Source: Mycobacterium malmoense
GTDB lineage: Bacteria > Actinomycetota > Actinomycetes > Mycobacteriales > Mycobacteriaceae
Direction: 5' to 3'
NCBI RefSeq assembly: GCF_019645855.1
Contig: NZ_CP080999.1
Location: 3,989,270 to 4,021,269 of the forward strand
Length of the DNA stretch: 32,000 nt
This document shows positions 1,474 through 23,227 of this stretch, one piece after another. How positions within the stretch are numbered: position 1 is the first letter of the stretch; each line of letters starts with the position of its first letter. The notes under the pieces are model-generated. The model worked only from the letters and a program-made list of their open reading frames with translations. It was not told where the DNA came from and did not search any database. The translations under genes and the position numbers were made by a program.

Positions 1474-1494
1474 GACAGATTGGGCCGATCTGTC
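1474..1494. promoter_or_regulatory. Candidate operator: perfect inverted repeat GACAGAT-N7-ATCTGTC in the ALDH/P450 divergent intergenic region
   Basis: Read directly: arms at 1474-1480 and 1488-1494, 22 nt upstream of the P450 GTG. A TTGACA (1433-1438) and a TAGACA (1457-1462) lie 18 nt apart just upstream. No experimental support. Confidence 0.3.
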
Positions 1495-1515
1495 GGATCT
1501 CCCGGGAGGCTTACC

Positions 1516-2700: not shown

Positions 2701-2716
2701 AAGGAGGACCAAGTTA

Positions 2717-5314: not shown

Positions 5315-5323
5315 GGGAGCGGA

Positions 5324-5938: not shown

Positions 5939-5953
5939 AGCCGGTTGAGACCG

Positions 5954-7237: not shown

Positions 7238-7360
7238 CCACGCTCCCGCCGTCTAGTCCACCGTCGCATGTGGATCTGCCACCATCTTACGCGTGGATCT
7301 GCCGCAAGGTAGCGCGTGGATCTGCCGCAAAGACTCGCTGCCAATTGGCACGTGGATAAC
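7231..7360. repeat. Array of GTGGAT(CTGCC) repeats upstream of, and overlapping, the ATPase start codon
   Basis: Core GTGGATCTGCC occurs at 7270, 7293 and 7316 (23-bp phase). Two copies extend to a perfect 17-mer, GCGTGGATCTGCCGCAA (7291-7307 and 7314-7330). A degenerate GTGGATAAC lies at 7352. Inverted copies ATCCACGC (7237-7244, overlapping the ATG) and TCCAC (7257-7261) are also present; the latter forms TCCAC-N8-GTGGA with the first direct copy. Confidence 0.8.
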
Positions 7361-7501
7361 CGGAGGGATCGCTCACGCGGCCGCGCCGAGCATGTTCCTA
7401 TGTAGACCTCCTAGACAAACAGCCAGTGAGCTGGTAATACCTCACCGACGCCCCTGTACCTGGGGAATTAGATGACGGGCGAGACGACCGCGGAGGCTGG
7501 C

Positions 7502-8947
7502 GTGCCACTTCTAGTTGCAGCCCCTGAGCTGTTGGCTTCGGCGGCAACGAATTTGGAAAGCATAGGTTCGGCACTGGATGCGGCCCACGCGGCGGTTGCC
7601 GTTCCGACCACCGAGCTTGTGGCCGCCGGCGCCGATGAGGTCTCGACGGCCGTGGCTGCGCTATTCGCCGGGTACGGGCAGCAGTATCAGGCGCTTGCCG
7701 GGCAGGTCGCGGCCTTTCATGGTTGGTTCACGGGCACCCTGGCCACGAACGCGAATTCGTATGCGTCCACCGAGGCCGCCAACATCGGTCAGCTGCTGTC
7801 GGGCGTGGTCAGTGGGCCCGTCCGGGAACTGACCGGGCGCCCGCTGATCGGCAACGGCGCCAACGGATACACCAATTCTCAAGGTGTAGGGACGCCCGGC
7901 GGTGCCGGCGGATGGTTGTACGGCAACGGTGGTAACGGTGGCAATAGCACCTATGGTGGAGCGGCCGGGGGCGCTGGCGGCGCCGGCGGGTGGCTGTTGG
8001 GCAACGGCGGCACGGGCGGGGCCAGCGGGCCCGGCGGTGTCGGCGGCGCGGGAGGAGCCGCCGGCTTGCTGTCGGGCGTAGCCGGGGCAACCGGCGTGAG
8101 CACACCTTTGGCAGCCAACGAAACCGTCATCTCTGTAGATCAATACGGCAACGCGATAGTAAACATCTCCGTCGGCGGCGGACCGAGCGTGGGCGCGATA
8201 GTTGACACCGGGTCCACCGGTCTTCTGCTCCCGCGCCAAGACGTCAACATAGCCAGCCTCGGCACGCCCACCGGGTCGGGCACCGTTATTTACGGCAACA
8301 GCACCAACTATGAAACCGTCCACTACGAGACGTACCAAACAACGGTAAATCTTGGGAATGGCATCGTCACGACGTCGACCGGCGTCGACGTCGCCACCTC
8401 CGCGACCGAGACGATCAATGGTGTGACAAATCCTGTTCAGCTCTCCTCGATACCCGCCATTCTGGGTATCGGGCCCAACGACGGGTACCCGCTCTCTACC
8501 CCGGTGACCTCGGCGTTGCCGGGCACCCTCGACGAGGGTGTGCTCATCAACGAACCCCAAGGTCTGCTGGAGTTCGGCTCCAACCCGCTGACCCCCCTTG
8601 CCTCGCTTACCGGATCGCCGATGACCAACCTGGAAATACAGATCAATGGCGGTTCTCTGCAAAGCGCTACCGGCGCGTTCATCGATTCCGGCGGCTTGAC
8701 CGGAGCCATCCCGTCAAACCTGATTTCGGGTGTTTCGGCCGGCAATACGGTGCCGACCGGAACGACGCTTACGGTCTATACCAGCGGCGGTCAGGAGCTG
8801 TACTCGGAAATGGTCACCAGTGCCGACGCGCCCTATGTCGTGTCATCAAGCGACCCGTTCAATACCGGGAATTACCTCTTCTCGCTGGACCCGATCTACA
8901 TTTCGAACAGCCCCAGCGGTGTGGGAATGACCGTCATCGACGCATGA
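7502..8947 (+). CDS. PE-PGRS family protein with C-terminal pepsin-like aspartic protease domain (PecA/PE_PGRS35-like)
   Basis: ORF 7472..8947. The preferred start is GTG 7502, with GGAGG at 7492-7496, giving the N-terminus PLLVAAPELLASAATNLESIGS and the second PE helix ADEVSTAVAALFAGYGQQYQALAGQVAAFH. A short Gly-rich PGRS linker spans ~7898-8075. Two catalytic triads are present: VDTGSTGLLLP (DTG at 8204-8212) and FIDSGGLTG (DSG at 8684-8692). Confidence 0.85.
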   Translation: MPLLVAAPELLASAATNLESIGSALDAAHAAVAVPTTELVAAGADEVSTAVAALFAGYGQQYQALAGQVAAFHGWFTGTLATNANSYASTEAANIGQLLSGVVSGPVRELTGRPLIGNGANGYTNSQGVGTPGGAGGWLYGNGGNGGNSTYGGAAGGAGGAGGWLLGNGGTGGASGPGGVGGAGGAAGLLSGVAGATGVSTPLAANETVISVDQYGNAIVNISVGGGPSVGAIVDTGSTGLLLPRQDVNIASLGTPTGSGTVIYGNSTNYETVHYETYQTTVNLGNGIVTTSTGVDVATSATETINGVTNPVQLSSIPAILGIGPNDGYPLSTPVTSALPGTLDEGVLINEPQGLLEFGSNPLTPLASLTGSPMTNLEIQINGGSLQSATGAFIDSGGLTGAIPSNLISGVSAGNTVPTGTTLTVYTSGGQELYSEMVTSADAPYVVSSSDPFNTGNYLFSLDPIYISNSPSGVGMTVIDA

Positions 8948-8951
8948 CGCT

Positions 8952-9054
8952 TAGCGCCCCGTGCGTTCGCATAGCGCCCCGTGCGTTGAGTGTGAAGCGT
9001 GGGCTTTCAGTGTGACGCTAGGGCGTCGATCCGGGCCTCGAAGCGTCCCTGGGC
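8952..9054. repeat. Short degenerate tandem direct repeats (~20-bp period) in the convergent intergenic region
   Basis: TAGCGCCCCGTGCGTT occurs twice (8952-8967 and 8972-8987). It is followed by TGTGAAGCGTGGGC (8991-9004), TGTGACGCTAGGGC (9011-9024) and GAAGCGTCCCTGGGC (~9040-9054). Confidence 0.6.
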
Positions 9055-9101
9055 TCACGCGCGAATCCCTGAGCGCACACTCGACGGGTCGACCAGTCGG
9101 C

Positions 9102-10061
9102 CTACCGCCGCCGCGCCAGTGCCCGCAGGAAGAACGTCAGGTTGGCCGGCCGCTCGGCGAGCCGCCGCATGAAGTATCCATACCACTGGGTCCCGAACGG
9201 CACATACACCCGGACCTGGTTGCCGGAGCCCGCCAGCCGCCGCTGTTCGCCGTCGCGGATGCCGTACAGCATCTGGTATTCGAAATCCGCAACGCCGCGG
9301 CCCGATTCGCGAGCCATGCCGGGAACCGCAGCGATGATCGCCGGGTCATGGGAGGCCACCATCGGATAGCCCGACCCGGCCATCAGCACCCGAAGGCAGG
9401 CCAGATAGGACTCGGTGGCCTCGGCGCGGTCTCGGTAGGCCACCGACGCCGGCTCGTCGTAGGCGCCCTTGCAGAGCCGGATCCGAGCCCCGGACACGGC
9501 AAATTCCTGGCAGTCGTCGAGGGTACGCCGCAGATAGGCCTGCAAAACCGTGCCCAGCCAAGGGAAATCGGTCCGCAGGTCGCGGACGATGGACAGCGTC
9601 GACTCGGTCGTGGTGTGGTCCTCGGCATCCACCGTCACCCACAGGCCGGCACGCTGCGCCGCCTCACAGATCGACCAGGCGTTCTCCCGGGCGATCTTCT
9701 CTCCGTCGCGCTGGAGCGACTGCCCCAGCGCCGACAACTTGACCGAGACCTCCAGCGGTCGGACGCCCGCGAAATCGCCAGGGCGGCCCAGTTTTTCGAT
9801 GAGATCCAGGTAAACCCGCACGGCCGCGTCGGCGTCGTCGACGTCGGAGACGCCCTCGCCCAGATAGTCGATGCTGACGTAGCGGCCCGACTCACGCAGG
9901 GCGGCAACGACATCCATCGCGGACTCGATCGTCTCCCCCGGCACGAACCGGTGCACGACCTTGCGGGCGACCGGCAGCCGTTCGGCGGTCCGGCGCAATC
10001 CCTCCCTTCGGCCGGCGGCCATGATCGCCGGCCGAAGGGTGTTGGCGAACACCCCGGCCAT
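9102..10061 (-). CDS. pruB: Proline dehydrogenase
   Basis: Only the last 319 codons of track ORF 9102..11342 are real. The start ATG at 10061-10059 overlaps the pruA stop by 1 nt (TGATG). The sequence MAGVFANTLRPAIMAAG...VSVKLSALG...LWVTVDAEDH...IRLCKGAY...FEYQMLYG is typical ProDH. Confidence 0.9.
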   Translation of the reverse strand: MAGVFANTLRPAIMAAGRREGLRRTAERLPVARKVVHRFVPGETIESAMDVVAALRESGRYVSIDYLGEGVSDVDDADAAVRVYLDLIEKLGRPGDFAGVRPLEVSVKLSALGQSLQRDGEKIARENAWSICEAAQRAGLWVTVDAEDHTTTESTLSIVRDLRTDFPWLGTVLQAYLRRTLDDCQEFAVSGARIRLCKGAYDEPASVAYRDRAEATESYLACLRVLMAGSGYPMVASHDPAIIAAVPGMARESGRGVADFEYQMLYGIRDGEQRRLAGSGNQVRVYVPFGTQWYGYFMRRLAERPANLTFFLRALARRR

Positions 10062-11692
10062 CACTCGGCCGCCATGTGCGGGTACGCGTGGTCGGTGGCC
10101 GGGACGAACGTCTCCTTGATGGTGCGGGCCGACGTCCAGCGCAACAGGTTCAGCACCGATCCGGCCTTGTCGTTGGTGCCCGAGCCGCGCGAACCGCCGA
10201 ACGGTTGGCGCCCGACCACCGCGCCGGTCGGTTTGTCGTTGACGTAGAAATTTCCGGCCGCGAACCGCAGCCGGTCCTGCGCGGTCAGCACGGCCCGGCG
10301 GTCGTCGGCGATCACCGCGCCGGTCAGCGCGTAACGGGATCCGGTGTCGATGACGTCGAGGATTCGTTCGTACTGGTCGTCGGGGTAGACGTGCACCGAC
10401 AGCAACGGACCGAAGTACTCGGTCGCGAACGATTCGTCGGTCGGGTCGTCGGACAGCAACACGGTCGGACACACGAAATAGCCGACGCTGTCGTCGTATT
10501 CGCCTCCCACCGCGATGGTGACGCCGGGTGCGCCCTTCGCCCGCTCGATGGCGTTGACGTTCTTGGCGAAGGCGCGCCGGTCGATCAGCGCGCCGCCGTA
10601 GTTGGTCAGGTCGGTGATGTCGCCGTAGCGCAGGGCGGCGGTCGCGCCCAGGAAGTCGTCGCCCATGCGTCGCCACAGCGAGCGCGGGATAAACGCCCGC
10701 GACGCCGCCGAGCATTTCTGGCCCTGGTAGTCGAACGCGCCGCGAATCAGCGCCGTGCGCAGCACATCCGGCCGCGCCGAGGCGTGCGCGACGACGAAGT
10801 CCTTGCCTCCGGTCTCGCCGACCAGCCGCGGATAGCTGTGGTAGCGGCCGATATTGGCGCCCACCCGCTGCCAGAGCTGCTGGAAGGTGGCCGTCGACCC
10901 GGTGAAGTGAATGCCGGCCAGCCGCGGATCGGCCAGTGCCACATCGGAAACCGCGAAGCCGTCGCCGGTGACCAGGTTGATGACGCCGGGCGGCAACCCC
11001 GCGGCCTCCAGCAATTGCATGGTCAGATACGCCGACGGGGTTTGGGCGATCGACGGCTTCCACACCACGGTGTTGCCCATCAGCGCCGGCGCGGTCGGCA
11101 GGTTGCCGGCGATCGAGGTGAAGTTGAACGGCGTGATCGCGTAGACGAAGCCGTCCAGCGGGCGGTAGTCGCTGCGGTTCCACTCGCCGGGTCCGCTGAT
11201 CGGCTGCTGCGCCAGGATCTGGCGGGCGAACGCGACGTTGAACCGCCAGAAGTCGATGAGCTCGCACGGCGCGTCGATCTCGGCCTGGTAGGCGGACTTG
11301 GATTGGCCGAGCATCGTGGCGGCGGCGATCCTCTCTCGCCACGGCCCGGCCAGCAGGTCGGCGGCGCGCAGGAACACCGCGGCACGTTCGTCAAAAGGCA
11401 TTGCTGCCCAAGCATTCTTGGCGGCCGCCGCGGCCTCGACGGCCGCCGTCGCGTCGTCGTGCACGGCGTTGGTCAGCGTGCCCAGCCTCGCGGCGTGCCG
11501 GTGCGGCTGGACGACATCGATCCGCTCGCCGTCGCCCATGCGGTGCTTGCCGCCGACGACATGCGGGAGGTCGATCGGGTGGTCGGCCTGCGCGGCGAGT
11601 TCGTTGAGCAGCCGGGCGCGCTCCGGGGAGCGCGGCGCATAGTCGTGGACCGGCTCGTTGGCCGGCATCGGCACCTGGGTGATCGCGTCCAT
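10061..11692 (-). CDS. pruA: Delta-1-pyrroline-5-carboxylate dehydrogenase
   Basis: ORF 10061..11722. The preferred start is ATG 11692 (MDAITQVPMPANEPVHDYAP...). ALDH-superfamily motifs: VVWKPS, FTGSTATF, ETGGKDF, YQGQKCSAASR, EYFGP. It is coupled to the proline dehydrogenase gene downstream. Confidence 0.95.
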   Translation of the reverse strand: MDAITQVPMPANEPVHDYAPRSPERARLLNELAAQADHPIDLPHVVGGKHRMGDGERIDVVQPHRHAARLGTLTNAVHDDATAAVEAAAAAKNAWAAMPFDERAAVFLRAADLLAGPWRERIAAATMLGQSKSAYQAEIDAPCELIDFWRFNVAFARQILAQQPISGPGEWNRSDYRPLDGFVYAITPFNFTSIAGNLPTAPALMGNTVVWKPSIAQTPSAYLTMQLLEAAGLPPGVINLVTGDGFAVSDVALADPRLAGIHFTGSTATFQQLWQRVGANIGRYHSYPRLVGETGGKDFVVAHASARPDVLRTALIRGAFDYQGQKCSAASRAFIPRSLWRRMGDDFLGATAALRYGDITDLTNYGGALIDRRAFAKNVNAIERAKGAPGVTIAVGGEYDDSVGYFVCPTVLLSDDPTDESFATEYFGPLLSVHVYPDDQYERILDVIDTGSRYALTGAVIADDRRAVLTAQDRLRFAAGNFYVNDKPTGAVVGRQPFGGSRGSGTNDKAGSVLNLLRWTSARTIKETFVPATDHAYPHMAAE

Positions 11693-11748
11693 GCTGCCAG
11701 GATCCCCGGCACAGCACCCCATCCTGTTAGCCGATCGGACAAGATTTA

Positions 11749-13368
11749 GTGGGCGAAGTAGTACGATCAGACAATATGGGAGTGGCTGGCGTCGGGTTGG
11801 GTCAACTGGTGCTGGCGCTGGACGCGACGCTGGTCAGCCTGGTGGACGCGCCCCGCGGCCTGGACCTGCCGGTGGGCTCGGCGGCGTTGATCGATTCCGA
11901 CGACGTGCGGCTCGGCCTGGCGGCGGCAGCGGGCTCGGCCGACGTGTTCTTCCTGCTGGGCGTCGCCGACGACGAGGCGCTGCAGTGGATGGACAGGCAG
12001 GCGAGCGAGCGCGCGCCGGTGGCGATCTTCGCCAAGGAGCCGTCGGACGCGCTGGTGGCCAGGGCGGTCGCGGCCGGGTCGGCGGTGGTAGCCGTCGACC
12101 CACGGGCCCGGTGGGAGCGCCTCTACCAGTTGGTCAACCACGTCCTGGAGCACCACAGGGACCGCGCCGACCCGACGGACGACTCGGGCACCGACCTATT
12201 CGGTTTGGCGCAGTCGCTGGCCGACCGCATCCACGGCATGGTGAGCATCGAAAACGCCCAGTCGCAGGTGCTTGCCTATTCGGCCTCCAACGACGAGGCC
12301 GACGAGCTGCGGCGCCTTTCCATCCTGGGCCGCGCCGGTCCGCCCGAGCATCTGAAGTGGATCGGCCAATGGGGCATCTTCGACGCGCTGCGATCCGGCG
12401 ACCAGGTGGTGCGCGTCGCCGAGCGCCCGGAGTTGGGTCTGCGCCCGCGGCTCGCGATCGGGATCCATCAGCCGCCGGCCGGTGGCCACCGACCACCGGT
12501 GTTCGCCGGCGCTATCTGGGTTCAGCAGGGCTCGCAACCGCTGGCCGACGACGCCGAGGAGATGCTGCGGGGCGCGGCGGTGCTGGCCGCCCGGATCATG
12601 TCACGGCTGGCGGCCCGGCCGTCCACGCACGCGCGGCGGGTGCAACAACTTCTGAGCCTGACGGACGGCGAGCCCGCCGACGTGGCCGCCATCGCCCGCG
12701 AACTTGGCCTCGCCGCCGACGGCACGGCCGCGCTGATCGGCTGGGACTCCGCCGACACCGGGGCCCGCCCTGCGCGGCTGGCCGACGTTTTGGCGTTGAG
12801 CGCCAGCGCTTTTCGCCGCGATGCTCAGGTCGCGTCGCGGGGGTCGCGAATCTATGTGCTGCTGCCGCAGACTCGCACCCGGCCGGTCACCTCGTGGGTC
12901 CGCGGCACGATCGACGCGCTGCGCACCGAACTTGGCGTCGAGCTGCGGGCCGCCATCGCCGCGCCGGTCGCCGGCCTGGCGGGGGTCGCGGATGCGCGTA
13001 CCGAGGTGGATCGTGTGCTGGATAGTGCTGAGCGGCACCCGGTTTTAGGGCAGGTGACATCGCTGGCCGAGGCGCGCACCACCGTCCTGCTCGATGAGAT
13101 CGTCACCCTGGTCGGCGCCGACGAGCGGCTGGTCGATCCGCGGATCCGCGAGCTGCGCGCGCGGGACCCGGTGCTGGCCGAGACGCTGCGGGCCTACCTG
13201 GACAGTTTCGGTGACGTTGGCGCCGCCGCGCGGTCGCTGCAAGTGCATCCCAACACCGTCCGCTACCGGGTGCGACGGATCGAGAAGCTGTTGTCGACCT
13301 CGCTGTCCGACCCCGAAGTGCGCCTGCTGTTTTCGCTGGGATTGCGGGTGACCGAGCGCTCGGCCTAG
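11749..13368 (+). CDS. pruC: PucR-family transcriptional regulator, divergent from pruA
   Basis: 539 aa (alternative start ATG 11776, MGVAGVGLGQL...). C-terminal PucR-type HTH LRAYLDSFGDVGAAARSLQVHPNTVRYRVRRIEKLL. Position and orientation match the mycobacterial pruC-pruA-pruB arrangement. Confidence 0.85.
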   Translation: MGEVVRSDNMGVAGVGLGQLVLALDATLVSLVDAPRGLDLPVGSAALIDSDDVRLGLAAAAGSADVFFLLGVADDEALQWMDRQASERAPVAIFAKEPSDALVARAVAAGSAVVAVDPRARWERLYQLVNHVLEHHRDRADPTDDSGTDLFGLAQSLADRIHGMVSIENAQSQVLAYSASNDEADELRRLSILGRAGPPEHLKWIGQWGIFDALRSGDQVVRVAERPELGLRPRLAIGIHQPPAGGHRPPVFAGAIWVQQGSQPLADDAEEMLRGAAVLAARIMSRLAARPSTHARRVQQLLSLTDGEPADVAAIARELGLAADGTAALIGWDSADTGARPARLADVLALSASAFRRDAQVASRGSRIYVLLPQTRTRPVTSWVRGTIDALRTELGVELRAAIAAPVAGLAGVADARTEVDRVLDSAERHPVLGQVTSLAEARTTVLLDEIVTLVGADERLVDPRIRELRARDPVLAETLRAYLDSFGDVGAAARSLQVHPNTVRYRVRRIEKLLSTSLSDPEVRLLFSLGLRVTERSA

Positions 13369-14032
13369 CGGCGGAGCGGACATGAACACCTGGCCGGGTC
13401 GGGCACGCCGTGGTGGTCACATGTGTCACGTGCGTCTCGGCGTGGCAGGCACATACTTCGCTGCCCGCCTCACAGCGACACGCGTGGTCAGCTGTCGCTG
13501 CGAGGCGGGCACATCGCCTATGCCGCCCAGCGAGTTACCGATGTGACAACGGGTCGGCAAGCAGCCCGTCCCACCCGGGGCGCTGCTTGTCGTTGGGGTC
13601 GCTAGGCACTGGCGAGCACGCGATTCCTTGCAACCCAGTCGTCGATGTGGCGCATGGTCACGGGTAGCGCCTCCCCAAAAAGGCGAGGTGGTCGGAGCGG
13701 GGAATCTCCACATAGGCCGGGGATCATCGACAGTGTTGCGACTGCGGTCCGCACGGGGCCTGCGCGACCGACCGCTGCCCGACGGCGCCATCATCTGGAC
13801 CTCACCCCGCGGCCCGCCCCGCATCTGCATACCGACGAAATACCATCTGCCCCAAGAGAATATCGACCACCACCCGATGACCGCGACATCATGATGCCCG
13901 GATGATGCCGAACGCAACCACCCGCCGCCCTATGAGCGGGCCGTAAACCTTCGCGCCCCACGGAATAGTTATGCTCAGCGTGAGGCTAAATCAAAGTGTT
14001 GCAGCGGATTTGCGTCCGGTTAGGCTTCCCTG

Positions 14033-14836
14033 GTGACAGAAAGCCCGTCGTCGTATTTGGTGCTGGCTTCCCAGCGCAGCGGCAGCACGCTGCTGGTGGA
14101 ATCGCTGCGGGCGACCGGGGTGGCCGGGGAGCCCCAGGAATTCTTCCAGTATCTGCCGAGCACGAGCCAGGCCCCGCAGCCGCGGGAGTGGTTCGACGGC
14201 GTTGAAGACGAGTCGATCCTAAGCCTGCTCGACCCGCTGGACGAAGGCACGCCGGACCTCGCGCCGGCCGAAATCTGGCGCGACTACATCCGCACCGTCG
14301 GAAGAACACCGAACGGCGTGTGGGGCGGCAAGCTGATGTGGAACCAGACACCGCTGCTGTTGAACCGCGCGAAGGACCTGCCGCATCGATCCGGCGACGG
14401 TTTGCGGGCCGCGATCCGCGATGTCGTCGGCGAGGAACCGCTCCTGCTTTACGTGTACCGGCCCGATGTGGTGTCGCAGGCGGTGTCGTTCTGGCGTGCG
14501 GTGCAGACCCGGGTGTGGCGGGGCAGACCGGATCCGACCCGCGACGCGCGCGCCACCTACCACGCCGGGGCGATCGCCCACGTCGTCACCATGCTGCGCG
14601 CCCAGGAGCGCGGCTGGCGAAACTGGTTCGCCGAAGAAGACATCAAACCCATGGAGATTTCCTATCCGGTGCTGTGGCGCAACCTGACTCAGGTGGTGGG
14701 CACCATCCTCGACGAGTTGGGGCTCGACCCGCGGCTGGCGCCCCACCCGGTGCTGGAACGCCAGGCCGACCAGCGTTCCGACGAGTGGGTGGACCGCTAT
14801 CGTGCGGACGCCGAGAAAGAGGGACTACCGACGTGA
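14033..14836 (+). CDS. stf0: Stf0-type sulfotransferase (trehalose 2-sulfotransferase family)
   Basis: 267 aa with GTG start. [33 protein letters not shown] (PAPS-binding P-loop-like QRSGST) and the remainder match my recollection of M. tuberculosis Stf0 (Rv0295c) along the whole length. The stop overlaps the cysD start (GTGA, 14833-14836). Confidence 0.85.
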
Positions 14837-15756
14837 CCGCAACCGCACCGACAGAAACGCGACGAGTCGACGAGTTGCGGCTGCTGGAAGCCGAAGCCGT
14901 GCACATCATTCGCGAGGTCGTGGCCGAGCTGGAGCGGCCGGTGCTGCTGTTTTCGGCGGGCAAGGACTCGATCGTGCTGCTTCGCTTGGCGGAGAAGGCG
15001 TTTCGGCCGCTGCCGTTGCCGTTTCCGGTGCTGCACGTCGACACGGGCCACAACTTTCCCGAGGTGATCGAGTTTCGCGATCGCAGGGTCACCGGGCACG
15101 GGCACAGGCTGATCGTCGCCTCGGTGCAGGAATCCATCGACACCGGCCGCGTGCCCGACCCCGGTCCCGGAGCTTCGCGCAACCGGGCCCAGACGCGCAC
15201 GCTGCTCGACGCGCTGGAGGCCGGCGGCTTCGATGCGGCGTTCGGCGGCGCCCGCCGGGACGAGGAGCGCGCCCGCGCCAAGGAACGCATCCTGAGCTTC
15301 CGCGACGAGTTCGGCCAGTGGGATCCCCGCGCGCAGCGCCCGGAGCCCTGGTCGCTCTACAACGGCCGCATCAAGAAGGGCGAGCAGGTGCGGGTGTTCC
15401 CGCTGAGCAACTGGACCGAGCTCGACGTGTGGCGCTACATCGAGCTGGAAGACCTTGAAATACCGTCCATTTACTACGCCCACGAACGCGAGGTGTTCGA
15501 GCGCGACGGCATCCTGCTGGCGGTCTCGGAGTACGCCGGGCCGCGGACCGGCGAGACCGCCGCCGTGGAGTGGGTGCGCTACCGCACCGTCGGCGACCTG
15601 ACCATCACCGGGGCGGTGCGTTCCAGGGCCACCGAGATCACCGGTGTCATCGCCGAGATCTCCGCGGCCACGGTCTCCGAGCGCGGCGAGACCCGTGCCG
15701 ACGATCGCACCTCGGCCGCGGCGATGGAGGACCGCAAGCGAGAGGGTTATTTCTGA
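14833..15756 (+). CDS. cysD: Sulfate adenylyltransferase subunit 2
   Basis: The true start is GTG 14833, inside track ORF 14320..15756; the upstream part of that ORF is Arg/Pro-rich shadow. PAPS-reductase-fold motif [15 protein letters not shown], then [10 protein letters not shown] and [10 protein letters not shown]. Confidence 0.95.
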
Positions 15757-17639
15757 TGACCGCGACCGTCACCCGTCAGCTGCTGCGCATCGCCACCGCG
15801 GGTTCGGTGGACGACGGCAAGAGCACCCTGATCGGGCGGCTGCTGCACGACACCGACAGCCTACCGCTGGACCACCTGGAAGCCGTCACCGACGAAGACG
15901 GCGTCGCCGACCTGGCGGCGCTGTCCGACGGTCTGCGGGCCGAACGCGAACAGGGCATCACGATCGACGTCGCCTACCGCTTCTTTTCCACCGACGCCCG
16001 CGGCTACATCCTGGCCGACACTCCGGGCCACGAGCGCTACACCCGCAACATGTTCACCGGCGCCTCCAACGCGCATGTGGCCATCCTGCTGGTCGACGCG
16101 CGCGCCGGGGTGCTGCGACAGACCCGCAGACACGCGCGCATCGCAAAGCTGTTGGGCATCAAGCACTTTGTCGCAACGGTGAACAAGATCGACCTCATCG
16201 ACTTCGACCGGGCCAAGTTCGCCGACGTGGAAGACCAGCTGCGCCGGTTGGCGGCGCGCCTCGGCGACGTGGACATCACGGTGATCCCCATCGCGGCCAA
16301 GCACGGGGACAACGTCGTGCACCGCTCCGACCGCACGCCGTGGTACGGCGGGCCCACGCTGCTGGAGTACCTGGAAAGTGTCGAACTGGCCGCGCCGCAG
16401 GCCGAGGCGTCGCGGCTGCGGTTGCCGGTGCAGTGGGTGTCGCGGCCGACCGCCAACGTGCGTCGCCGCTACACGGGGCGGCTCGCGGCGGGAACGCTGC
16501 GCGTCGGCGATCCGGTGGTTTCGCTGCCCGCCGGCACCCGCTCGACGGTGACCGCGCTGGACACCCTCGACGACGAGCGCGCGACGGCCGTTGCGCCCCT
16601 GTCCGTTTCGATCGAGCTGGCCGACGACATCGACGTGGGCCGCGGCGACGTGCTGGTCAACGGTGCCGACGACGCGACCTGGCCGGTGCAGGCCCGAGAG
16701 CTCGACGCGACCGTGTGCTGGTTCGTCGACTCGCCGCTGCGCGCCGGCGACCGGCTGGCGCTCAAACAAACCACCAAGACGGTCCGGGCAACCGTGCAGG
16801 AGCTACACACGCGGCTGGATCCGGAAACGCTCGACGAGCTCGACAGTCCAGTCGAGTTGGCGCTCAACGACATCGGCACCGTGACCCTGCGAACCAGCTC
16901 CGTCGTCATCGCCGACACTTACGCCGACAACCGCGACAGCGGCGCGTTCATCCTGATCAACGAAACCACCAACGACACCGTCGGCGCCGGCACCATCATT
17001 GAGGCGCGGGAGGTCAAGCCGGGCACGCACCCACGCACCGACATCCGCTGGCATCCCTCGGCGCTGGACCGTGGCCACCGGTGGCGGGCCATCGGACAGG
17101 CGGGCGCGACGATCTGGTTCACCGGCCTGCCCGCGTCCGGCAAGTCGACGATCGCGGTGGCCGTGGAGCGCGCGCTCGTCGAGTCGGGGCGGGTGGCCTA
17201 CCTGCTCGACGGCGACAACCTGCGCCACGGCCTGTCCGACGACCTGGGCTTTTCCCCCGGCGACCGCACCGAAAACATCAGGCGGGTAGGCCATTTGACC
17301 CGACTGCTGGCCGACGCGGGCGTGGTCGCGCTGGCGTCGCTGGTGTCGCCGCTCAAGTCCGACCGCGAGACCGCCCGCGCCCTCAACGACGCCGCCAGGC
17401 TGCCCTTCATCGAGGTGCACGTCGCCACGTCGCTGGCCGAATGCGAAAAGCGGGACCCCAAGGGCCTCTACGCGCGCGCCCGCAGCGGCGAACTCAAAGG
17501 GCTGACCGGTGTCGACGCGCCCTATGAGCCACCCGACAATCCGGACCTCGTGCTCGACACCACCGGCGCCGACATCGACGGTCTCGCCGCGCAAGTCATC
17601 GCCCTGCTCAACGAACGCAGTCCCCGCCGACAGAGCTAG
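15756..17639 (+). CDS. cysNC: Bifunctional sulfate adenylyltransferase subunit 1 / adenylylsulfate (APS) kinase
   Basis: The true start is ATG 15756 (TGATG overlap with the cysD stop), inside track ORF 15570..17639. GTPase motifs AGSVDDGKSTLIGRLL, DTPGHERY and NKIDL. C-terminal APS kinase P-loop WFTGLPASGKSTIA and DGDNLRHGL. Confidence 0.95.
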   Translation: MTATVTRQLLRIATAGSVDDGKSTLIGRLLHDTDSLPLDHLEAVTDEDGVADLAALSDGLRAEREQGITIDVAYRFFSTDARGYILADTPGHERYTRNMFTGASNAHVAILLVDARAGVLRQTRRHARIAKLLGIKHFVATVNKIDLIDFDRAKFADVEDQLRRLAARLGDVDITVIPIAAKHGDNVVHRSDRTPWYGGPTLLEYLESVELAAPQAEASRLRLPVQWVSRPTANVRRRYTGRLAAGTLRVGDPVVSLPAGTRSTVTALDTLDDERATAVAPLSVSIELADDIDVGRGDVLVNGADDATWPVQARELDATVCWFVDSPLRAGDRLALKQTTKTVRATVQELHTRLDPETLDELDSPVELALNDIGTVTLRTSSVVIADTYADNRDSGAFILINETTNDTVGAGTIIEAREVKPGTHPRTDIRWHPSALDRGHRWRAIGQAGATIWFTGLPASGKSTIAVAVERALVESGRVAYLLDGDNLRHGLSDDLGFSPGDRTENIRRVGHLTRLLADAGVVALASLVSPLKSDRETARALNDAARLPFIEVHVATSLAECEKRDPKGLYARARSGELKGLTGVDAPYEPPDNPDLVLDTTGADIDGLAAQVIALLNERSPRRQS

Positions 17640-17752
17640 GTCGACGGTCGCGACCCGCTGCGCCCGGCGACGCCACGCTTGCGATCGCTCCTAAATTCAG
17701 CGCGAGCAAATCACTTGGTCGCCGGGAGCGGCCACGCAACCATTGCGTCGTG

Positions 17753-17881
17753 ATTGATACGGGCACACCGCAGTGGCGGGGTTGGCTTGAACGGGTCGGT
17801 GACGACTGGTTGGCGACGCTGCTGGCCGGTGTGATCGTCGCATTGGCGGTCGCCAATGCGCTCCCCAAGATCCCGTGGTGA
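17753..17881 (+). CDS. Candidate small membrane protein (42 aa, single TM helix)
   Basis: Below the track length cut-off. TTG start; product (M/L)[41 protein letters not shown]. 34 of 42 codons end in G or C (hand count), which is coding-like. The stop lies 4 nt before the in-frame GTG 17886 of the next gene. It could instead be a frameshifted N-terminal extension of that gene. Confidence 0.3.
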
Positions 17882-19004
17882 TGGCGTGAGCACCGCCAGC
17901 GTCGAACCCGACGAAAAGTCCGCTGAAGCGGCCTTCACCAGCAGCCGCGCACTCGACTACGCGCCGGGCATTCTGCTGCTGATCGCGGTGGGCGTGCTGG
18001 GCAAGTACGCCCAGATCTGGTGGAACACCCTGGCCAAACACCACCACTGGACCGTTCCCGACATCGAATATGTCTTGTGGGCCATCGTGATTGGGCTGCT
18101 CATCACCAACACCGTCGGCCTGCATCCGATATTCCGGGCGGGCGTGCTGACCTACCAATTTTGGCTCAAGGTCGGAATCGTGGCGCTGGGTTCGCGATTC
18201 GTGCTCGGCGACATAGCTAAACTCGGCGGCGTCAGCCTGGTCCAGATTCTGGTGGACATGGCGGTCGCGGGCACCATCATCCTGGTCGTCGCACGGGTAT
18301 TCGGGCTATCGGGCAAGCTGGGCTCGCTGCTGGCGATAGGGACCTCGGTCTGCGGGGTGTCCGCCATCGTGGCCGCCAAGGGTGCGATCCGGGCCCGCAA
18401 CGCCGACGTCAGCTACGCGATCGCGGCGATCCTGGCCTTGGGCGCGGTGGGGCTGTTCGTGTTGCCGCCGTTGGGGCATGCCATCGGCCTCACCGACTAC
18501 GAATTCGGCCTGTGGGCCGGCCTGTCGGTGGACAACACGGCGGAAACCACCGCCACCGGCTACCTGTTTTCCGACCCCGCCGGCAAGATCGCCGTGCTGG
18601 TCAAGTCGACCCGCAACGCGCTCATCGGGTTCGTCGTCCTGGGTTTCGCGCTGTTTTGGGCGGCGCGCGGGCAAGCCGACGAGATCGCGCCCGGCGCAAC
18701 GGCCAAGGCCGCCTTCATCTGGGAGAAATTCCCGAAATTCGTGCTCGGCTTCCTGGCGGTGTCGGCGATCGCGACCGCCGGCTGGCTGAGCAAGGGACAA
18801 ACCGCCAACCTGGCCAACGTGTCGAAGTGGGCGTTCCTGTTGACCTTCGCCGGCGTCGGGCTCACCACCGACATCCGCCAAATCGCGCGCACCGGGTGGC
18901 GCCCGCTCGTCGTCGCGATCATCGGGCTCACCGTCGTCGCATCGGTCTCCCTGGGTCTCGTCCTGCTCACCTCGCGCGTGTTCCATTGGGGCCTAAGCAC
19001 CTAA
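17856..19004 (+). CDS. YeiH/UPF0324 family membrane protein (annotated in databases as a putative sulfate exporter family transporter)
   Basis: 382 aa from ATG 17856 (alternative start GTG 17886). Polytopic. [15 protein letters not shown] and [18 protein letters not shown] correspond to E. coli YeiH LIGAGSSICGAAAVLA and GIYIGSTVHEVAQVVAAG. Confidence 0.8.
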
Positions 19005-19058
19005 CGGCACCGCCAAGGCCGTCCTGCGGACCAACGCCAAGGCGGTAACCTGGCGCCC

Positions 19059-19184
19059 ATGCAAAACTCGTCCATCGTCTCCCTGCTGCGCGAACGCGCC
19101 GGCCTGCCGCCCGACGATTTAGCGTTCGGCGACACCGATCACGGGCGGGGCTGGCGGCGGGGATTCGCCCCGCTGGACGCCTGA
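19059..19184 (+). pseudogene. Relic of the N-terminus of a fatty acyl-AMP ligase (FAAL, FadD-like), 41 codons then a stop
   Basis: Below the track cut-off. MQNSSIVSLLRERAGLPPDDLAFGDTDHGRGW... resembles mycobacterial FAAL N-termini (pattern S-hydrophobic-x-x-hydrophobic-LRERA-x-x-x-P-x-D-x-A-F/L-x-F-x-D-Y-x-x-x-W, for example FadD23/25/28). The frame then ends at TGA 19182-19184, about 530 codons short of a full enzyme. Confidence 0.45.
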
Positions 19185-19216
19185 GCGGGCCGGCGCGCCC
19201 GCACCCCACGTTTGCC

Positions 19217-19867
19217 ATGTTGATCACCATCCTGGTGATGGCCGTCGCCGTGAGCCTCGAACCGTTCCGGATCGGCATGACGGTGCTGATGCTGAACAGG
19301 CCCAGGCCCATGCTGCAACTGCTCGCGTTCCTGTGCGGCGGTTTCGCGATGGGAACGACCGTCGGCCTGGTCGTCCTGTTCGTCCTGCGACGCCGACTGC
19401 TGGGGTCGACGTACTTCACGTTGCCCAGGGTCCAAATCTTCATCGGCGTGCTGGCGCTGTTGGTCGCGGCCGTGCTCGTCGTGAAACCCGCCGCCCCCCG
19501 CGGTGGCGGGCCGGGGAAGCTCACGACGTGGACCCGACGGCTGCTGAACGGGCATTCGTTGTGGGTCGCGGGAGTGGCCGGGCTGGGAATCGCGCTGCCG
19601 TCGGTGGATTATCTGGCCGCGCTGGCCGTCATTCTGGCGTCCGGCGCCGCGGCCATGACACAGGTCGGCGCGCTACTGGTGTTCAACGTCGTGGCCTTCG
19701 CGCTGGTGGAGATCCCGCTCCTTGCCTACCTGCTGGCGCCCCGGACGACGCGCACGTGGATGACGGCCGTGCACGACTGGATCCGGTCGCGTCGCCGCAT
19801 CGAGGTGGCCGCCCTGCTGGCCGGGGTCGGCTGCGTCCTGCTCACGGTGGGCTCGGCCGCTCTGTGA
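19217..19867 (+). CDS. GAP family integral membrane protein (DUF2910 / SfLAP family, Sap-like)
   Basis: 216 aa with about 6 TM segments. N-terminus MLITILVMAVAVSLEPFRIGMTVLMLNRPRPMLQLLAFLCGGFAMG and C-terminal WIRSRRRIEVAALLAGVGCVLL fit my recollection of the GAP/SfLAP family pattern. The family call is from memory. Confidence 0.6.
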   Translation: MLITILVMAVAVSLEPFRIGMTVLMLNRPRPMLQLLAFLCGGFAMGTTVGLVVLFVLRRRLLGSTYFTLPRVQIFIGVLALLVAAVLVVKPAAPRGGGPGKLTTWTRRLLNGHSLWVAGVAGLGIALPSVDYLAALAVILASGAAAMTQVGALLVFNVVAFALVEIPLLAYLLAPRTTRTWMTAVHDWIRSRRRIEVAALLAGVGCVLLTVGSAAL

Positions 19868-19879
19868 CGATTCGCGCGA

Positions 19880-21190
19880 TCATCCCGTCCCCCGGCTGAC
19901 GGCGCGGTCGCCGTTGTCGCGCGGCACGCGCGCGGCGTCCTGCGGCGCGTCGGATCTCAACAGCGGCCAGCCTTTACGCAGCACGTAGTCGAGCCAGGCG
20001 CCGGCGAACTGCGAGGTGAGCACGGCCGCGACCACCAGCGTGGTGTAGAACTTCGAGCTGATGATGCCGGCGTCGAACGCGACGCTGGCCAGCACGATGC
20101 CCGGGCCGCCGCGGGCGTTGGTGGTGATCCCGAGGTTGATCAGATCGAGGCCCCGGAAACCGGCGAGCCGCCCGGCGAGCGCGACCGACAACATTTTGAC
20201 CACGCAGGTGCCGACGATGAAGATGGCCATCATCGGCAACGACACGCCCCGGATGAGGTCCAGCTTCAGACCGACGATCGCGAAGTAGACCGGAATGAAG
20301 AAGGCGAAGGACACCTTGCTGATCGCCCCGATGGAGTCCTCGAAGAGTCCGCGTTCGTTGTCGACGAGGGCAAAGCCGGCGAGGAACGCGGCGAACACCA
20401 GGTTGACGTCGAGCGCTCCGGCGACCGCGCAGTAGGCGAGCAACACCGCGATCGCGTAGCCGGTGGGCGAATGCCGCGCCAAAGCGTTCCAGCGAGCCTT
20501 GTTGATGCGCTTGACGGCGCGGGGGACAAGCGTAAGTCCGAGAACGAAATAAGCCACCGTCACCAGCAGGTGCAACGACATCAGCCACGGATTCAGATGC
20601 GACTTCGCCGCGATGGAGGTCGCGATCGCCAGCGCGAGCCACAGCACGATGTCCTCAAGCACGGCGACGCCGAGGATGAGGCGCGCGAAGCGCGTGTCCA
20701 GGATCTTCAGGTCGGCAAAGATTTTCGACACCACCGGCACCGAAGTGACGGCGACGCCCACCGCCAGAATGATGATCAGCGACACGCGGTTACCGTGCGG
20801 TCCGGCCAGGCTGGGACGAATGAGATGGGGCCCGAAGGTCAGCCCGAGCAAGAACGGTATGCCGGTCCCGACGACGACGAGCCAACTCACGGTCCGGCGC
20901 TCCCCCCGGCCGAACAGCTGCTGCACCTCGGCGCCGGAAACGAACATCAGCAGCAGGAGCCCGAGCCAGTAGACGAAACTGAGGATCTGGCTGTTGTGTC
21001 TGGCGGTGCCCATGAGGTGCTCGACGAACGGCAGCCGGCCCAGCAGCGCCGGGCCGAGCGCGATGCCGGCCAGGATCTCCCCCACGACCTTCGGCTGACC
21101 GAGCTTCACGAATAGATATCCCAGCAATTGGGCCAGGCCGACCAGCACAAAAAGCACGAATATGACCGCAGTCAATTGAGCGTTCGACAC
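19880..21190 (-). CDS. Cation:proton antiporter (CPA2 / Na+/H+ exchanger family)
   Basis: 436 aa with GTG start at 21190-21188. N-terminus LGYLFVKLGQPKVVGEILAGIALGPALLG is the classical Na_H_exchanger opening motif. Polytopic throughout. Confidence 0.85.
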   Translation of the reverse strand: MSNAQLTAVIFVLFVLVGLAQLLGYLFVKLGQPKVVGEILAGIALGPALLGRLPFVEHLMGTARHNSQILSFVYWLGLLLLMFVSGAEVQQLFGRGERRTVSWLVVVGTGIPFLLGLTFGPHLIRPSLAGPHGNRVSLIIILAVGVAVTSVPVVSKIFADLKILDTRFARLILGVAVLEDIVLWLALAIATSIAAKSHLNPWLMSLHLLVTVAYFVLGLTLVPRAVKRINKARWNALARHSPTGYAIAVLLAYCAVAGALDVNLVFAAFLAGFALVDNERGLFEDSIGAISKVSFAFFIPVYFAIVGLKLDLIRGVSLPMMAIFIVGTCVVKMLSVALAGRLAGFRGLDLINLGITTNARGGPGIVLASVAFDAGIISSKFYTTLVVAAVLTSQFAGAWLDYVLRKGWPLLRSDAPQDAARVPRDNGDRAVSRGTG

Positions 21191-22197
21191 TAGACACTCC
21201 TCAATTTATTGGGGACGTTCCGGCCGGCGCCGCCATGGCCGAGGACCCATCGTTGGTACAGCTGGTAGGCGAGCGTCAGCGCTCCTGCCCCGATGGCGAC
21301 GGAGAGGGGGTATTGGATGCTGGGCAAACCGATGACAAGCGGAAGCAGCCCGATCGCCAATGCGGGCGGCAGGTGAAGTTTCAGGAGGCGCAGCACGACG
21401 ATGCCGGCGACCATTGCACAGGCGGCCGCGGTACCGCCGCTTCCGAAGAGGCTCACGGCGACCCATCCCGCGACCGACGTCAGAAAACACGCGGCGGGCA
21501 GGGCCAACGGCTTCCCCGCCCAGGGACATGTCGTGGGGTGGGCGAACATCTCGTAGGCGATGACGATCAGCGGCGGGAACAGGACCAATCGCAGTCCGGA
21601 CGCCGTGGCGCCGAACGCCATCGCCGTCAAAAACGCGAAATACGGCAGGACCCATAAGTTCCCGGTCGGGAGCGTCTCGAGAATGTCGTCGATGTTCGCG
21701 GCCAAAGCCACTCCGGTCGCCGCGTACTTTCGCCGGCAATGCCGTTGCCAGGGCACGAGGATCAGCACCAACACCGCCAGGCTCAGCGCTATGGAAGCGG
21801 GGTAGAGCCAGCTTTTGATGCCCAGGAAGAGCGGCAGCGCGCCGGCCGCGATCGCCGGGGCGATATTCGACTTGAGCAGGGCCAATAGCAGCACGCATAC
21901 GCAGACCACGACCAGAATGGCCGGCACCCCGAAGCGAAGCTCCCGGGTGATCGACGTGCCGACGACCGCCGCGAGGGCCGGCGTCACGATAAGCCGCCCC
22001 GGCTGACTCGCCCACTTTCCCCACGGTCGGGTCAACACGTCGTGCGAAAGCGCCGCGAGCCCGGGGAAGAACAGGTAGTCCCAGCCGTGACACTGCGCTG
22101 CCACCACGACATAAAGCACGGCTACGGCCTCCATGAGGAGGCGCTCGCGGAGTGCCAGACTTCGCTCAGCCATAGACCCTGGCGTCCTTAGCGTCAT
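21190..22197 (-). CDS. Polytopic membrane protein with internal duplication, possibly a tandem HPP-like domain
   Basis: 335 aa (alternative starts at 22173 and 22134). Its stop TAG (21192-21190) overlaps the GTG of the antiporter by 1 nt. The two halves align by eye: ...LLALLKSNIAPAIAAGALPLFLGIKSWLYPASIA... versus ...VLRLLKLHLPPALAIGLLPLVIGLPSIQYPLSVA.... The family assignment is weak. Confidence 0.6.
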   Translation of the reverse strand: MTLRTPGSMAERSLALRERLLMEAVAVLYVVVAAQCHGWDYLFFPGLAALSHDVLTRPWGKWASQPGRLIVTPALAAVVGTSITRELRFGVPAILVVVCVCVLLLALLKSNIAPAIAAGALPLFLGIKSWLYPASIALSLAVLVLILVPWQRHCRRKYAATGVALAANIDDILETLPTGNLWVLPYFAFLTAMAFGATASGLRLVLFPPLIVIAYEMFAHPTTCPWAGKPLALPAACFLTSVAGWVAVSLFGSGGTAAACAMVAGIVVLRLLKLHLPPALAIGLLPLVIGLPSIQYPLSVAIGAGALTLAYQLYQRWVLGHGGAGRNVPNKLRSV

Positions 22198-22315
22198 GCC
22201 GCGGGCCTTCGCTCTGGCACCGAGGCTGCGGTCGCGGTGTCGAGTCTGCGTTCACGGCTGGCTTTTTCGCCCGTCGTCGCCGTCACTACAGGCTCGGCAG
22301 CCTCGGCGCCTCAGT

Positions 22316-23227
22316 TCAGAGGCTTTCGCCTGTTTCGAGCCAGTGGGCGCAGTCGTTGCCGAGTTGGTCCAGGGCGGTGGTGTCGAAGCGGTGGACTTGT
22401 TGGGGGGTCAGTTCGTTGCGGTGGTCGCGTTTGAGTCCTTTGTGAAAAAACGCTTTGGCACTCGACATGTGCGCCCCGCCAAAGGGCGCCATCTTTTCCG
22501 CCCGCGCGCTCATGTACTCAAACGAGCAATGCTCGGCGATGACATCCATGCGCAGCGACGCCGCGTCGATGGAGAAAAACTCCGCCAACCGTACGATCTG
22601 AGCCCGCAGATCGTTTTTGAGCTGCTGATAATGCAACAACAACACGTTAGGCTCCTCACGCAGCGCCCACCACGACGCCATGATGTCGAGCAGATCACAA
22701 CACCCATACCCGTGGGTATCGAGCCAACGATCAAAAAACTCCTGCATATCCTCCGGAATCACCAACGGGGTCGGGTCCCCCGACCACTGGGCATGAATCC
22801 GATTAATCTGCTCCATCGTCTCCGGAGAGAAGTTGTACAGATAGTTGTGCAAACTGATGCCCAGGTCCTTGCCGTTGCGCCCGACAAACACATACCGGGC
22901 CTGCGGAGCGATCGGCAGCGCATCAGCGGGCAGATGCGACTTAATCACCCGACGCACCCCCGCCACACGCTGCTGCTCGAGCACCGCCAGCATCGAGGCA
23001 TGATCACCCCAACTGGAATCCAACCACGGCGAGGTATCCGATAAACCCCCCTCACTTTCCTGCCCATTATGCAAAATCTGCTGAACGATCCGCTGCGTCC
23101 ACGTCGTCCCCGCCTTAAACGGATCCGCAACAACAATATCCCCCTCAACAAAACCACCCGACGCCAAAAACCCCTCCCACACCAAAGAATCAGAAAGATA
23201 ATCCCTGAGTACCCTGGTGGGAGCCAT
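22316..23227 (-). CDS. PAPS-dependent sulfotransferase (Sulfotransfer_1 / cytosolic-type, mycobacterial Stf-like)
   Basis: Track ORF 22316..23341. The preferred start is ATG 23227 (MAPTRVLRDY...). 5'-PSB motif DPFKAGTTWTQRIVQQIL, catalytic His in VIKSHLP, and a 3'-PB-like FFHKGLKRDHRNELTPQQ. G+C is visibly lower than in the flanks. Confidence 0.85.
   Translation of the reverse strand: MAPTRVLRDYLSDSLVWEGFLASGGFVEGDIVVADPFKAGTTWTQRIVQQILHNGQESEGGLSDTSPWLDSSWGDHASMLAVLEQQRVAGVRRVIKSHLPADALPIAPQARYVFVGRNGKDLGISLHNYLYNFSPETMEQINRIHAQWSGDPTPLVIPEDMQEFFDRWLDTHGYGCCDLLDIMASWWALREEPNVLLLHYQQLKNDLRAQIVRLAEFFSIDAASLRMDVIAEHCSFEYMSARAEKMAPFGGAHMSSAKAFFHKGLKRDHRNELTPQQVHRFDTTALDQLGNDCAHWLETGESL

Follow-up and report, generated by a model that had tools for sequence, protein, structure and literature searches.

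The question raised by the locus studied here is what a group of sulfation genes is doing next to the debris of a lipid cluster. The locus lies in a 32,000-nt stretch of the Mycobacterium malmoense chromosome (NZ_CP080999.1, positions 3,989,270 to 4,021,269; hereafter the window). It contains stf0 for trehalose 2-sulfotransferase, cysD and cysNC for the supply of 3'-phosphoadenosine 5'-phosphosulfate (PAPS), a putative sulfate exporter gene (yeiH), a remnant of a fatty acyl-AMP ligase (FAAL) gene, a gene of the GAP/SfLAP family (gap), and a second sulfotransferase gene. A sequence-only reading had taken these genes as scattered parts of the sulfolipid-1 (SL-1) system. All the genes it named are present, placed exactly or a few bases off. 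Judged from the flanks and the protein identities described below, however, the island is not made of SL-1 parts; it is the remains of a locus of the diacyltrehalose/polyacyltrehalose (DAT/PAT) type, at the position of the DAT/PAT locus of M. tuberculosis. The explanation favoured here, which we regard as fairly probable, is that the island is made up of three separable units, which form a mosaic in a decayed slot that holds DAT/PAT genes in M. tuberculosis and M. leprae.

For comparison, one genome per species was scanned with an alignment of GAP orthologues. Relatives are present in 356 species; the comparison set consists of the 80 best GAP loci, and overall, 82 related loci (designated by L and a number) were compared with the window. 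Two classes are distinguished, a fadD21-type class of 47 non-redundant loci and a class of 28 loci resembling the trehalose polyphleate (TPP) locus. The DAT/PAT locus of the M. tuberculosis complex (L090) was traced via PapA3: the PapA of L078 (Mycobacterium sp. 050134, NZ_JAZGLV010000003.1) is 75% identical to the cluster "acyltransferase PapA3 [M. tuberculosis]". The same PapA shares 95% identity with its M. saskatchewanense counterpart.

The slot is identified by its flank. The gene order in L090 is aminotransferase, helicase, polyketide synthase (PKS, 2101 aa), PapA3, MmpL10, Chp2 (-), FadD21 (-), PucR (-), PruA, and ProDH. The window carries this flank in mirror image: ProDH (-), PruA (-), PucR (+), and then the island. 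The PucR and PruA proteins of the two loci are 82% and 88% identical, respectively. The other side of the island is occupied by PE/PPE genes in the window and by esterase and amino-acid-permease genes in the relatives. In M. tuberculosis, the slot contains pks3/4 (Rv1180-81), papA3 (Rv1182), mmpL10 (Rv1183), chp2 (Rv1184c), and fadD21 (Rv1185c). In the relatives, it contains FadD21 (+), GAP (+), Chp (+), MmpL (-), PapA (-), and PKS (-); all five functions, with their order and orientation, are shared with M. tuberculosis. The identity of these cluster proteins to M. tuberculosis FadD21, Chp2, MmpL10, PapA3, and Pks3/4 is 64-77%, compared with only 42-66% for the TPP-type proteins. The M. leprae counterparts are ML1234, annotated as fadD21, and ML1233, the GAP gene; the next gene, ML1232, is annotated as a PE-PPE protein. 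The shared PucR/PruA/ProDH flank, the FadD21 identity of the ligase, the M. leprae annotation, and the identities of the cluster proteins are the grounds on which the remains are assigned to the DAT/PAT type.

The non-tuberculous slot differs from the M. tuberculosis DAT/PAT locus in that gap lies between fadD21 and chp2. M. tuberculosis has no gap there, and no relic of it is found in the 153-bp chp2-fadD21 spacer (L090:15589-15742). The non-tuberculous slot also often carries stf0-cysDNC-yeiH or Sat-APS kinase modules, neither of which is present at the M. tuberculosis locus.

The lipid genes of the window have been lost except for a 41-codon fadD21 stub. The absence of pks2, papA, and mmpL8, already remarked upon from the sequence, was confirmed: tblastn with PKS, PapA, MmpL, and Chp queries (E <= 1e-3) finds none of them across the whole 32-kb window. 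Among the 47 fadD21-type loci, a full fadD21 is retained in 10, chp, mmpL, and papA in 8, and PKS in 9. Intact lipid clusters are seen in L078, L045, L010, L043, L056, L060, and L027. In L078, positions 922-20588 are a contiguous series of uninterrupted frames for PucR (preceded by PruA), stf0, cysD, cysNC, yeiH, fadD21, gap, chp, mmpL, papA, and pks; in the ten-gene set from stf0 to pks, seven genes are co-directional and the gaps are short. Of an ancestral fadD21-gap-chp2-mmpL10-papA3-pks3/4 cluster, probably only gap and the fadD21 stub remain in M. malmoense. If so, a polyketide-acylated (sulfo)trehalose lipid could not be made from this locus, and the expected products would be trehalose-2-sulfate and one further sulfated compound.

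The ligase remnant had been linked to fadD23, the FAAL gene of the SL-1 locus. The remnant is real, and the link is not upheld. The peptide MQNSSIVSLLRERAGLPPDDLAFGDTDHGRGW-RRGFAPLDA* consists of the N-terminal 32 residues of a FAAL joined to its last ~9 residues (native ...QFxRLDA*). The stub thus keeps the native start and stop of fadD21 around a ~1.6-kb internal in-frame deletion, and its stop lies 32 nt before gap. Many relatives have a full-length FAAL (~580 aa) with the N-terminus MQNSSVVSLLRERAGLQPDD.AFRYTDYEQDWAGV at 33-37 nt 5' of the GAP gene. The stub itself has no Pfam match, the AMP-binding domain being gone, and phmmer with its 41 residues against PDB gives only chance sialidase matches. 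Its full-length counterpart in L078 passes the NCBIfam FadD21 model NF038337 with 1150.5 bits (cutoff 1100). The L078 protein also matches the M. tuberculosis FadD23 structure 8HD4 with 760 bits in phmmer, a score on a scale not comparable with that of the FadD21 model. The score for the FadD21 model, the M. leprae annotation as fadD21, and the 59% identity between the stub and residues 1-32 of M. tuberculosis FadD21 identify the stub as a remnant of fadD21, and an origin from FadD23 is not supported.

The leader motif of the stub also precedes the intact fadD21 ATG in L027, L078, L075, and L043; it may be a ribosome-binding region or a regulator site. In L011, L013, L015, L017, L022, L023, L026, L033, L041, and L054, the leader CGGTAACCTGGC stands straight before the gap ATG, the fadD21 ORF having been excised exactly; the distance from the motif to the gap ATG in these ten loci is 16-18 nt. 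In other loci, 5' and 3' crumbs of fadD21 are left, in about 13 deletion architectures. The differing end points of the crumbs indicate repeated deletions of fadD21. Most crumbs are mini-ORFs that begin at the fadD21 ATG and end 1-32 nt before gap. The retained leader, start, and stop of the stub may keep gap transcribed and translated, and deletions silencing gap would then have been selected against. The coordinates of the island and its surroundings are listed in Table 1.

Table 1. Features of the M. malmoense island and adjacent genes. Coordinates are positions in the window.
Feature	Coordinates	Strand	Evidence
Left flank: ProDH (-), PruA 10061-11692 (-), PucR-type regulator 11776-13368 (+)	9129..13368		Pfam Pro_dh, HTH_30
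stf0, trehalose 2-sulfotransferase, first gene of the putative operon	14033..14836	+	NF047724, PF09037
cysD, ATP sulfurylase small subunit	14833..15756	+	NF009214, 419 bits (cutoff 413)
cysNC, GTPase subunit fused to APS kinase, PAPS-making	15756..17639	+	NF004035, 778 bits (cutoff 715)
yeiH, putative YeiH/PF03601-family membrane transporter, annotated as "putative sulfate exporter"	17856..19004	+	PF03601, 299 bits
fadD21 leader motif CGGTAACCTGGCGCCC, directly before the stub ATG	19043..19058	+	
fadD21 in-frame relic (stub), 41 codons	19059..19184	+	Comparison with full-length FAALs of relatives
gap, intact GAP/SfLAP-family membrane protein, 216 aa	19217..19867	+	PF11139
CPA2-type cation:proton antiporter, last gene of the convergent operon	19880..21190	-	PF00999, 145 bits
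Putative divergent HPP-family membrane protein, 327 aa	21190..22173	-	L009 orthologue, UniRef name
Cytosolic-type sulfotransferase, 308 aa	22316..23242	-	PF00685, 124.8 bits
NarK-family MFS transporter	27892..29307	+	71% identical to the MFS in the APS-kinase/CysQ/Sat module of relatives

The spacer following the fadD21 stop (19185-19216), which is found in ~40 loci, was considered as a GC-rich hairpin and rejected, its energy being not below that of dinucleotide shuffles in 12 of 14 cases. Apparent compensatory changes are seen in it (GCGGGC/GCCCGC versus GCGGAC/GTCCGC), and they may be due to chance in GC-rich DNA.

The resemblance to SL-1 needs to be placed beside these facts. The M. tuberculosis SL-1 locus comprises papA2, sap, chp1, mmpL8, papA1, pks2, and fadD23, and stf0 belongs to the same system; the window likewise has a Sap-family protein and Stf0. 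The SL-1 genes are arranged in the order sap-chp1-mmpL8-papA1-pks2. The order gap-chp-mmpL-papA-pks of the intact relatives is the same. SL-1 differs in its chromosomal position. The relatives, moreover, have a FadD21-type FAAL and a single PapA, which is 75-77% identical to PapA3. To our knowledge, no sulfated lipid is known from the species with intact fadD21-type clusters.

The other comparable system is the TPP locus (MSMEG_0408-0413 of M. smegmatis), in which paralogous genes for PKS, PapA, MmpL, a PE acyltransferase, and a FAAL are directly followed by a GAP gene. The gap-like gene of this locus is on record (PMC5996870). The TPP-type GAPs are 65-77% identical to the window GAP, and the PE protein of L034 passes the model NF041570 ("acyltransferase PE"). 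The TPP-type loci differ in their flanks and in their FAAL (61-66% identity), and none of the 28 has a sulfation gene within 10 kb.

The assignment of the window protein to the GAP/SfLAP family was borne out by profile search: PF11139 is matched with 217.5 bits (gathering threshold 35; E = 1.8e-64) over 211 of 213 profile positions. The protein is the orthologue of M. leprae ML1233, and orthologues 65-91% identical to it occur in many Mycobacterium species. In a neighbour-joining tree, it clusters with the GAPs adjacent to fadD21, apart from the TPP clade. Orthologues in L078, L010, and L056 stand beside MmpL, unlike the window gap, which has no MmpL, PKS, PapA, or Chp within the 32 kb. An intact gap is found in every locus; its dN/dS is 0.07-0.36 between species without adjoining lipid genes, and it is equally conserved where no sulfation gene lies within 10 kb (L008, L020, L024, and L074). 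Gap and Sap belong to the LysE superfamily and act in the export of glycolipids, namely glycopeptidolipids and SL-1 (PMC3318749). The gap of M. malmoense would seem to retain a selected function, most likely in assisting lipid export by a transporter whose gene lies elsewhere, and a role of Gap in the export of trehalose-2-sulfate is weakly supported.

The left part of the island is the sulfation cassette. Stf0 matches the NCBIfam equivalog NF047724 with 456 bits (cutoff 400) over all 261 of 261 profile positions, and PF09037 with 358.8 bits. cysD and cysNC are adjacent, each above its curated cutoff, and CysNC contains the domains GTP_EFTU and APS_kinase. The earlier identification of Stf0 and of the PAPS supply genes is thus confirmed. 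The stf0 stop overlaps the cysD start (GTGA), and cysD and cysNC overlap by 1 nt (TGATG). From this arrangement, stf0, cysD, and cysNC can be predicted to form one operon with translational coupling of the three genes, and yeiH is probably included. dN/dS is 0.09-0.17 for Stf0 and 0.05-0.07 for CysD, and CysD proteins are 93-96% identical between loci. The putative sulfate exporter passes PF03601; its score of 114 bits for TIGR00698 is below the cutoff of 232.6. CysZ of Corynebacterium glutamicum was considered as a relative of YeiH, which would hint at sulfate import; it was dropped, as the CysZ paper gives no family.

Based on the family assignments, CysD/CysN would adenylylate sulfate, the CysC domain would phosphorylate the resulting adenosine 5'-phosphosulfate (APS) to PAPS, and Stf0 would move the sulfate onto trehalose, yielding trehalose-2-sulfate. 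The product of yeiH may transport sulfate or a sulfo-compound, in either direction.

The cassette is modular among the relatives. In the 42 related loci with sufficient upstream sequence, stf0, cysDNC, and yeiH lie directly 5' of the GAP orthologue in 14, and partial forms occur in 15 further loci. stf0 and yeiH without cysDNC are seen in 10 loci and cysDNC and yeiH without stf0 in two (L031 and L035), while 13 loci have none of these genes. yeiH adjoins the GAP orthologue in 27 of the 47 fadD21-type loci. The recurrence of the arrangement in 14 of 42 loci, and in part in 15 more, indicates that the sulfation genes and gap are not juxtaposed by chance.

A similar pairing is known in Rhodococcus qingshengii IGTS8, where stf0 adjoins a second cysD/cysNC set (stf0-cysD2-cysN2C) (PMC8557817). 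This cluster differs in gene order and in having a sulfatase neighbour, and neither YeiH nor GAP is reported there (PMC8557817). PapA3 of M. tuberculosis, which shares 53-55% identity with PapA1 and PapA2, was inactive on trehalose 2-sulfate, and the synthesis of PAT is independent of stf0 (PMC2676004). Because the cassette is modular, lipid clusters exist without it, stf0 is paired with cysD/cysNC in Rhodococcus, and PapA3 refuses trehalose 2-sulfate, stf0-cysD-cysNC, perhaps with yeiH, is treated here as a unit sufficient on its own for making PAPS and trehalose-2-sulfate. The earlier proposal of a minimal pathway for a sulfated metabolite is therefore reasonable for stf0-cysD-cysNC by itself; a role of GAP in exporting the product is unproven, GAP being equally conserved without sulfation genes.

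The 664 bp between the PucR regulator and stf0 (13369-14032) contain no recognizable gene. The counterpart of this region is occupied by a mycobacterial pilin gene in L008 and by a gene for a small exported protein in L078 (2685-3101).

To the right of gap, a second operon converges with the first on the gap 3' end. Its sulfotransferase had been recognized as a cytosolic-type enzyme, which is correct; the end assigned to it, 23227, is an internal ATG. Its motifs KAGTTW, KSHLP, and GRNGKD match the PAPS-binding and catalytic motifs of solved sulfotransferases, and the protein aligns with mammalian SULT structures. The CPA2 antiporter and HPP-like genes between gap and the sulfotransferase gene had gone unmentioned; they overlap by 1 nt. 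The HPP-like protein scores only 10.1 bits for PF04982 (cutoff 27.2), while its 65%-identical L009 orthologue passes with 31.9 bits, and its UniRef name is "HPP family protein". dN/dS is 0.04-0.11 for the sulfotransferase, 0.10-0.25 for the CPA2 gene, and 0.04-0.38 for the operon overall. The sulfotransferase gene has a GC content at third codon positions (GC3) of 70%, against 83-90% in its neighbours, and M. malmoense has paralogues more than 90% identical to it at other sites (QZA16607 and QZA20205). The atypical GC3 and the near-identical paralogues suggest a recent duplication or acquisition.

The triad of sulfotransferase, HPP-like, and CPA2 genes adjoins gap in seven other loci. In relatives, the triad is usually followed by genes for a second sulfotransferase, an APS kinase, a CysQ-like phosphatase, a NarK-type transporter of the major facilitator superfamily (MFS), Sat, and DUF6955. 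This recurrent module is seen at L009:12986-20648, L013:12927-19000, and L027:11902-15752; it has one or two Sulfotransfer_1 genes, and DUF6955 always adjoins Sat. The right-hand operon of the window has no PAPS genes of its own and so would need PAPS from CysDNC. The MFS gene of the window lies 4.6 kb from the sulfotransferase gene with PPE/PE genes between, and by its resemblance to the module transporter it is probably a stranded part of the APS-kinase/CysQ/Sat module.

Other elements are also found in and around the slot. Between PucR and stf0, some species have REP13E12/HNH-like ORFs (L013:1192-2154 and L015:4838-6427) or a methyltransferase gene (L013:6790-7818), which is consistent with an insertion hotspot. 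PE-PGRS, PPE, and PE genes surround the island in the window (7472-8947, 23923-26473, and 29335-31803), and PPE pairs split the sulfation modules in L019, L048, L050, and L085. No Rfam family or tRNA was matched in the window, and a scan of the same sequence for sigma-70 promoters and terminators gave nothing above shuffled controls.

The relation between the sulfation genes and the lipid genes allows other explanations than a mosaic. The ancestral series stf0-cysDNC-yeiH-fadD21-gap-chp-mmpL-papA-pks could have been a single pathway for a sulfated acyl-trehalose, intact in Mycobacterium sp. 050134, of which M. malmoense kept the sulfation half and gap. All ten genes are indeed contiguous and intact in L078, and partial versions exist in L045, L012, and L069, in the last of which stf0 is directly 5' of fadD21. 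A non-homologous PAPS module separates chp from mmpL in L027 and adjoins gap in L050, L069, and L075; it consists of DUF6955, Sat, and APS kinase genes, accompanied by an MFS gene and sometimes CysQ. The lack of sulfation genes at the TPP-type loci points in the same direction. The arrangement gap(+) chp(+) mmpL(-) papA(-) pks(-) has the order and orientation of SL-1. The cluster PKS passes the NCBIfam Pks2 model with 3487 bits (cutoff 2400), a match that was rejected as a sign of an SL-1-type PKS, since the model gives the PKS of the M. leprae fadD21 locus about the same score per residue and does not separate Pks2 from Pks3/4. Against a single pathway stands the PapA3 of M. tuberculosis, 75% identical to the PapA of L078 and inactive on trehalose 2-sulfate, together with PAT synthesis without stf0 (PMC2676004). 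Sulfation genes are also not enriched beside surviving lipid genes: of the loci with remaining lipid genes, 7 of 12 have sulfation genes within 10 kb, compared with 30 of the 35 from which the lipid genes are gone. Intact lipid clusters without a nearby sulfation gene occur in L010, L043, M. leprae, and M. lepromatosis, where no relics of stf0, cysDNC, yeiH, or PucR are present 5' of fadD21, and the association is mostly due to one synteny inherited by descent, not to independent events that recurred. No published work was found that connects stf0 or cysDNC with fadD21, ML1233, or gap-like genes. A single ancestral pathway is rated as rather unlikely. Its wider form is a shade more doubtful: the ancestral DAT/PAT-type locus of slow growers would have been a sulfoglycolipid supercluster, surviving intact near M. 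saskatchewanense (sp. 050134) and making a sulfated acyl-trehalose there, with the M. malmoense island as its relic and the M. tuberculosis DAT/PAT locus as a derivative without gap and the sulfation genes. Of the degenerating ancestral sulfoglycolipid cluster proposed earlier, what stands is a decayed glycolipid cluster, seen from the intact site of the relatives; the attribution to SL-1 is not supported, given the DAT/PAT slot and FadD21, and a sulfated ancestral product is unproven.

It is also conceivable that the sulfur genes landed independently in a recombination and insertion hotspot and have no functional relation among themselves or with gap. Species differ widely in what lies between PucR and the right flank, PE/PPE genes and REP13E12-like/HNH ORFs are present in the slot, and the composition of the sulfotransferase gene is atypical. 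Independent landing is nevertheless improbable. The coupling of stf0, cysD, and cysNC and the Rhodococcus pairing imply a function for this unit at least, the Sulfotransfer_1 module of relatives is accompanied by an APS kinase, CysQ, and Sat of its own, and three PAPS-related modules at one locus are unlikely without a selective reason. Less probable again is a minimal export pathway, in which stf0-cysDNC-yeiH-gap would form one unit and Gap, as a protein of a superfamily of small-solute exporters that also includes Sap (PMC3318749), would export trehalose-2-sulfate or another small sulfated product. gap is immediately 3' of yeiH on the same strand in 27 loci, purifying selection on gap persists after all lipid genes are lost, and the fadD21 deletions always leave a translated ORF or the fadD21 leader before gap. 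However, gap is equally intact without stf0, cysDNC, or yeiH within 10 kb (L009 and L019, besides the four loci mentioned above) and in the purely lipid clusters of M. leprae and the TPP loci; the characterized members of the family act on lipids, and the operon already has a candidate transporter in YeiH. The mosaic in a decayed DAT/PAT slot is retained, and several points weigh against it. Three sulfation modules at one locus (stf0-cysDNC-yeiH, Sat-APSK-CysQ-MFS, and Sulfotransfer_1-HPP-CPA2) favour a functional link, and the Sat-APSK genes inside the L027 lipid cluster are more easily explained by a link between sulfation and lipid, present or past, than by independent modules. About six of nine scorable fadD21 deletion junctions are in frame (p ~0.04 against an expectation of one in three), an excess that is only suggestive, with the classification made manually and the events assumed to be independent. 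The conserved stub boundaries are the one line of evidence for the proposed service of the stub to gap expression.

These results imply that genes annotated piecemeal in M. malmoense are the positional counterpart of the virulence-lipid (DAT/PAT) locus of M. tuberculosis, at a late stage of decay. The ML1233-type gap would be an ancestral member of the DAT/PAT-type cluster that has been lost in M. tuberculosis, and the selection on gap, outlasting all lipid genes, points to a function of Gap independent of the neighbouring pathway. The right-hand genes define a conserved, uncharacterized sulfotransferase/HPP-like/CPA2 module, which has its own PAPS genes in relatives. Species of the L078 type are candidates for sulfated acyl-trehaloses outside the M. 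tuberculosis complex, and this is directly testable. If the supercluster did exist, SL-type lipids would extend beyond the M. tuberculosis complex.

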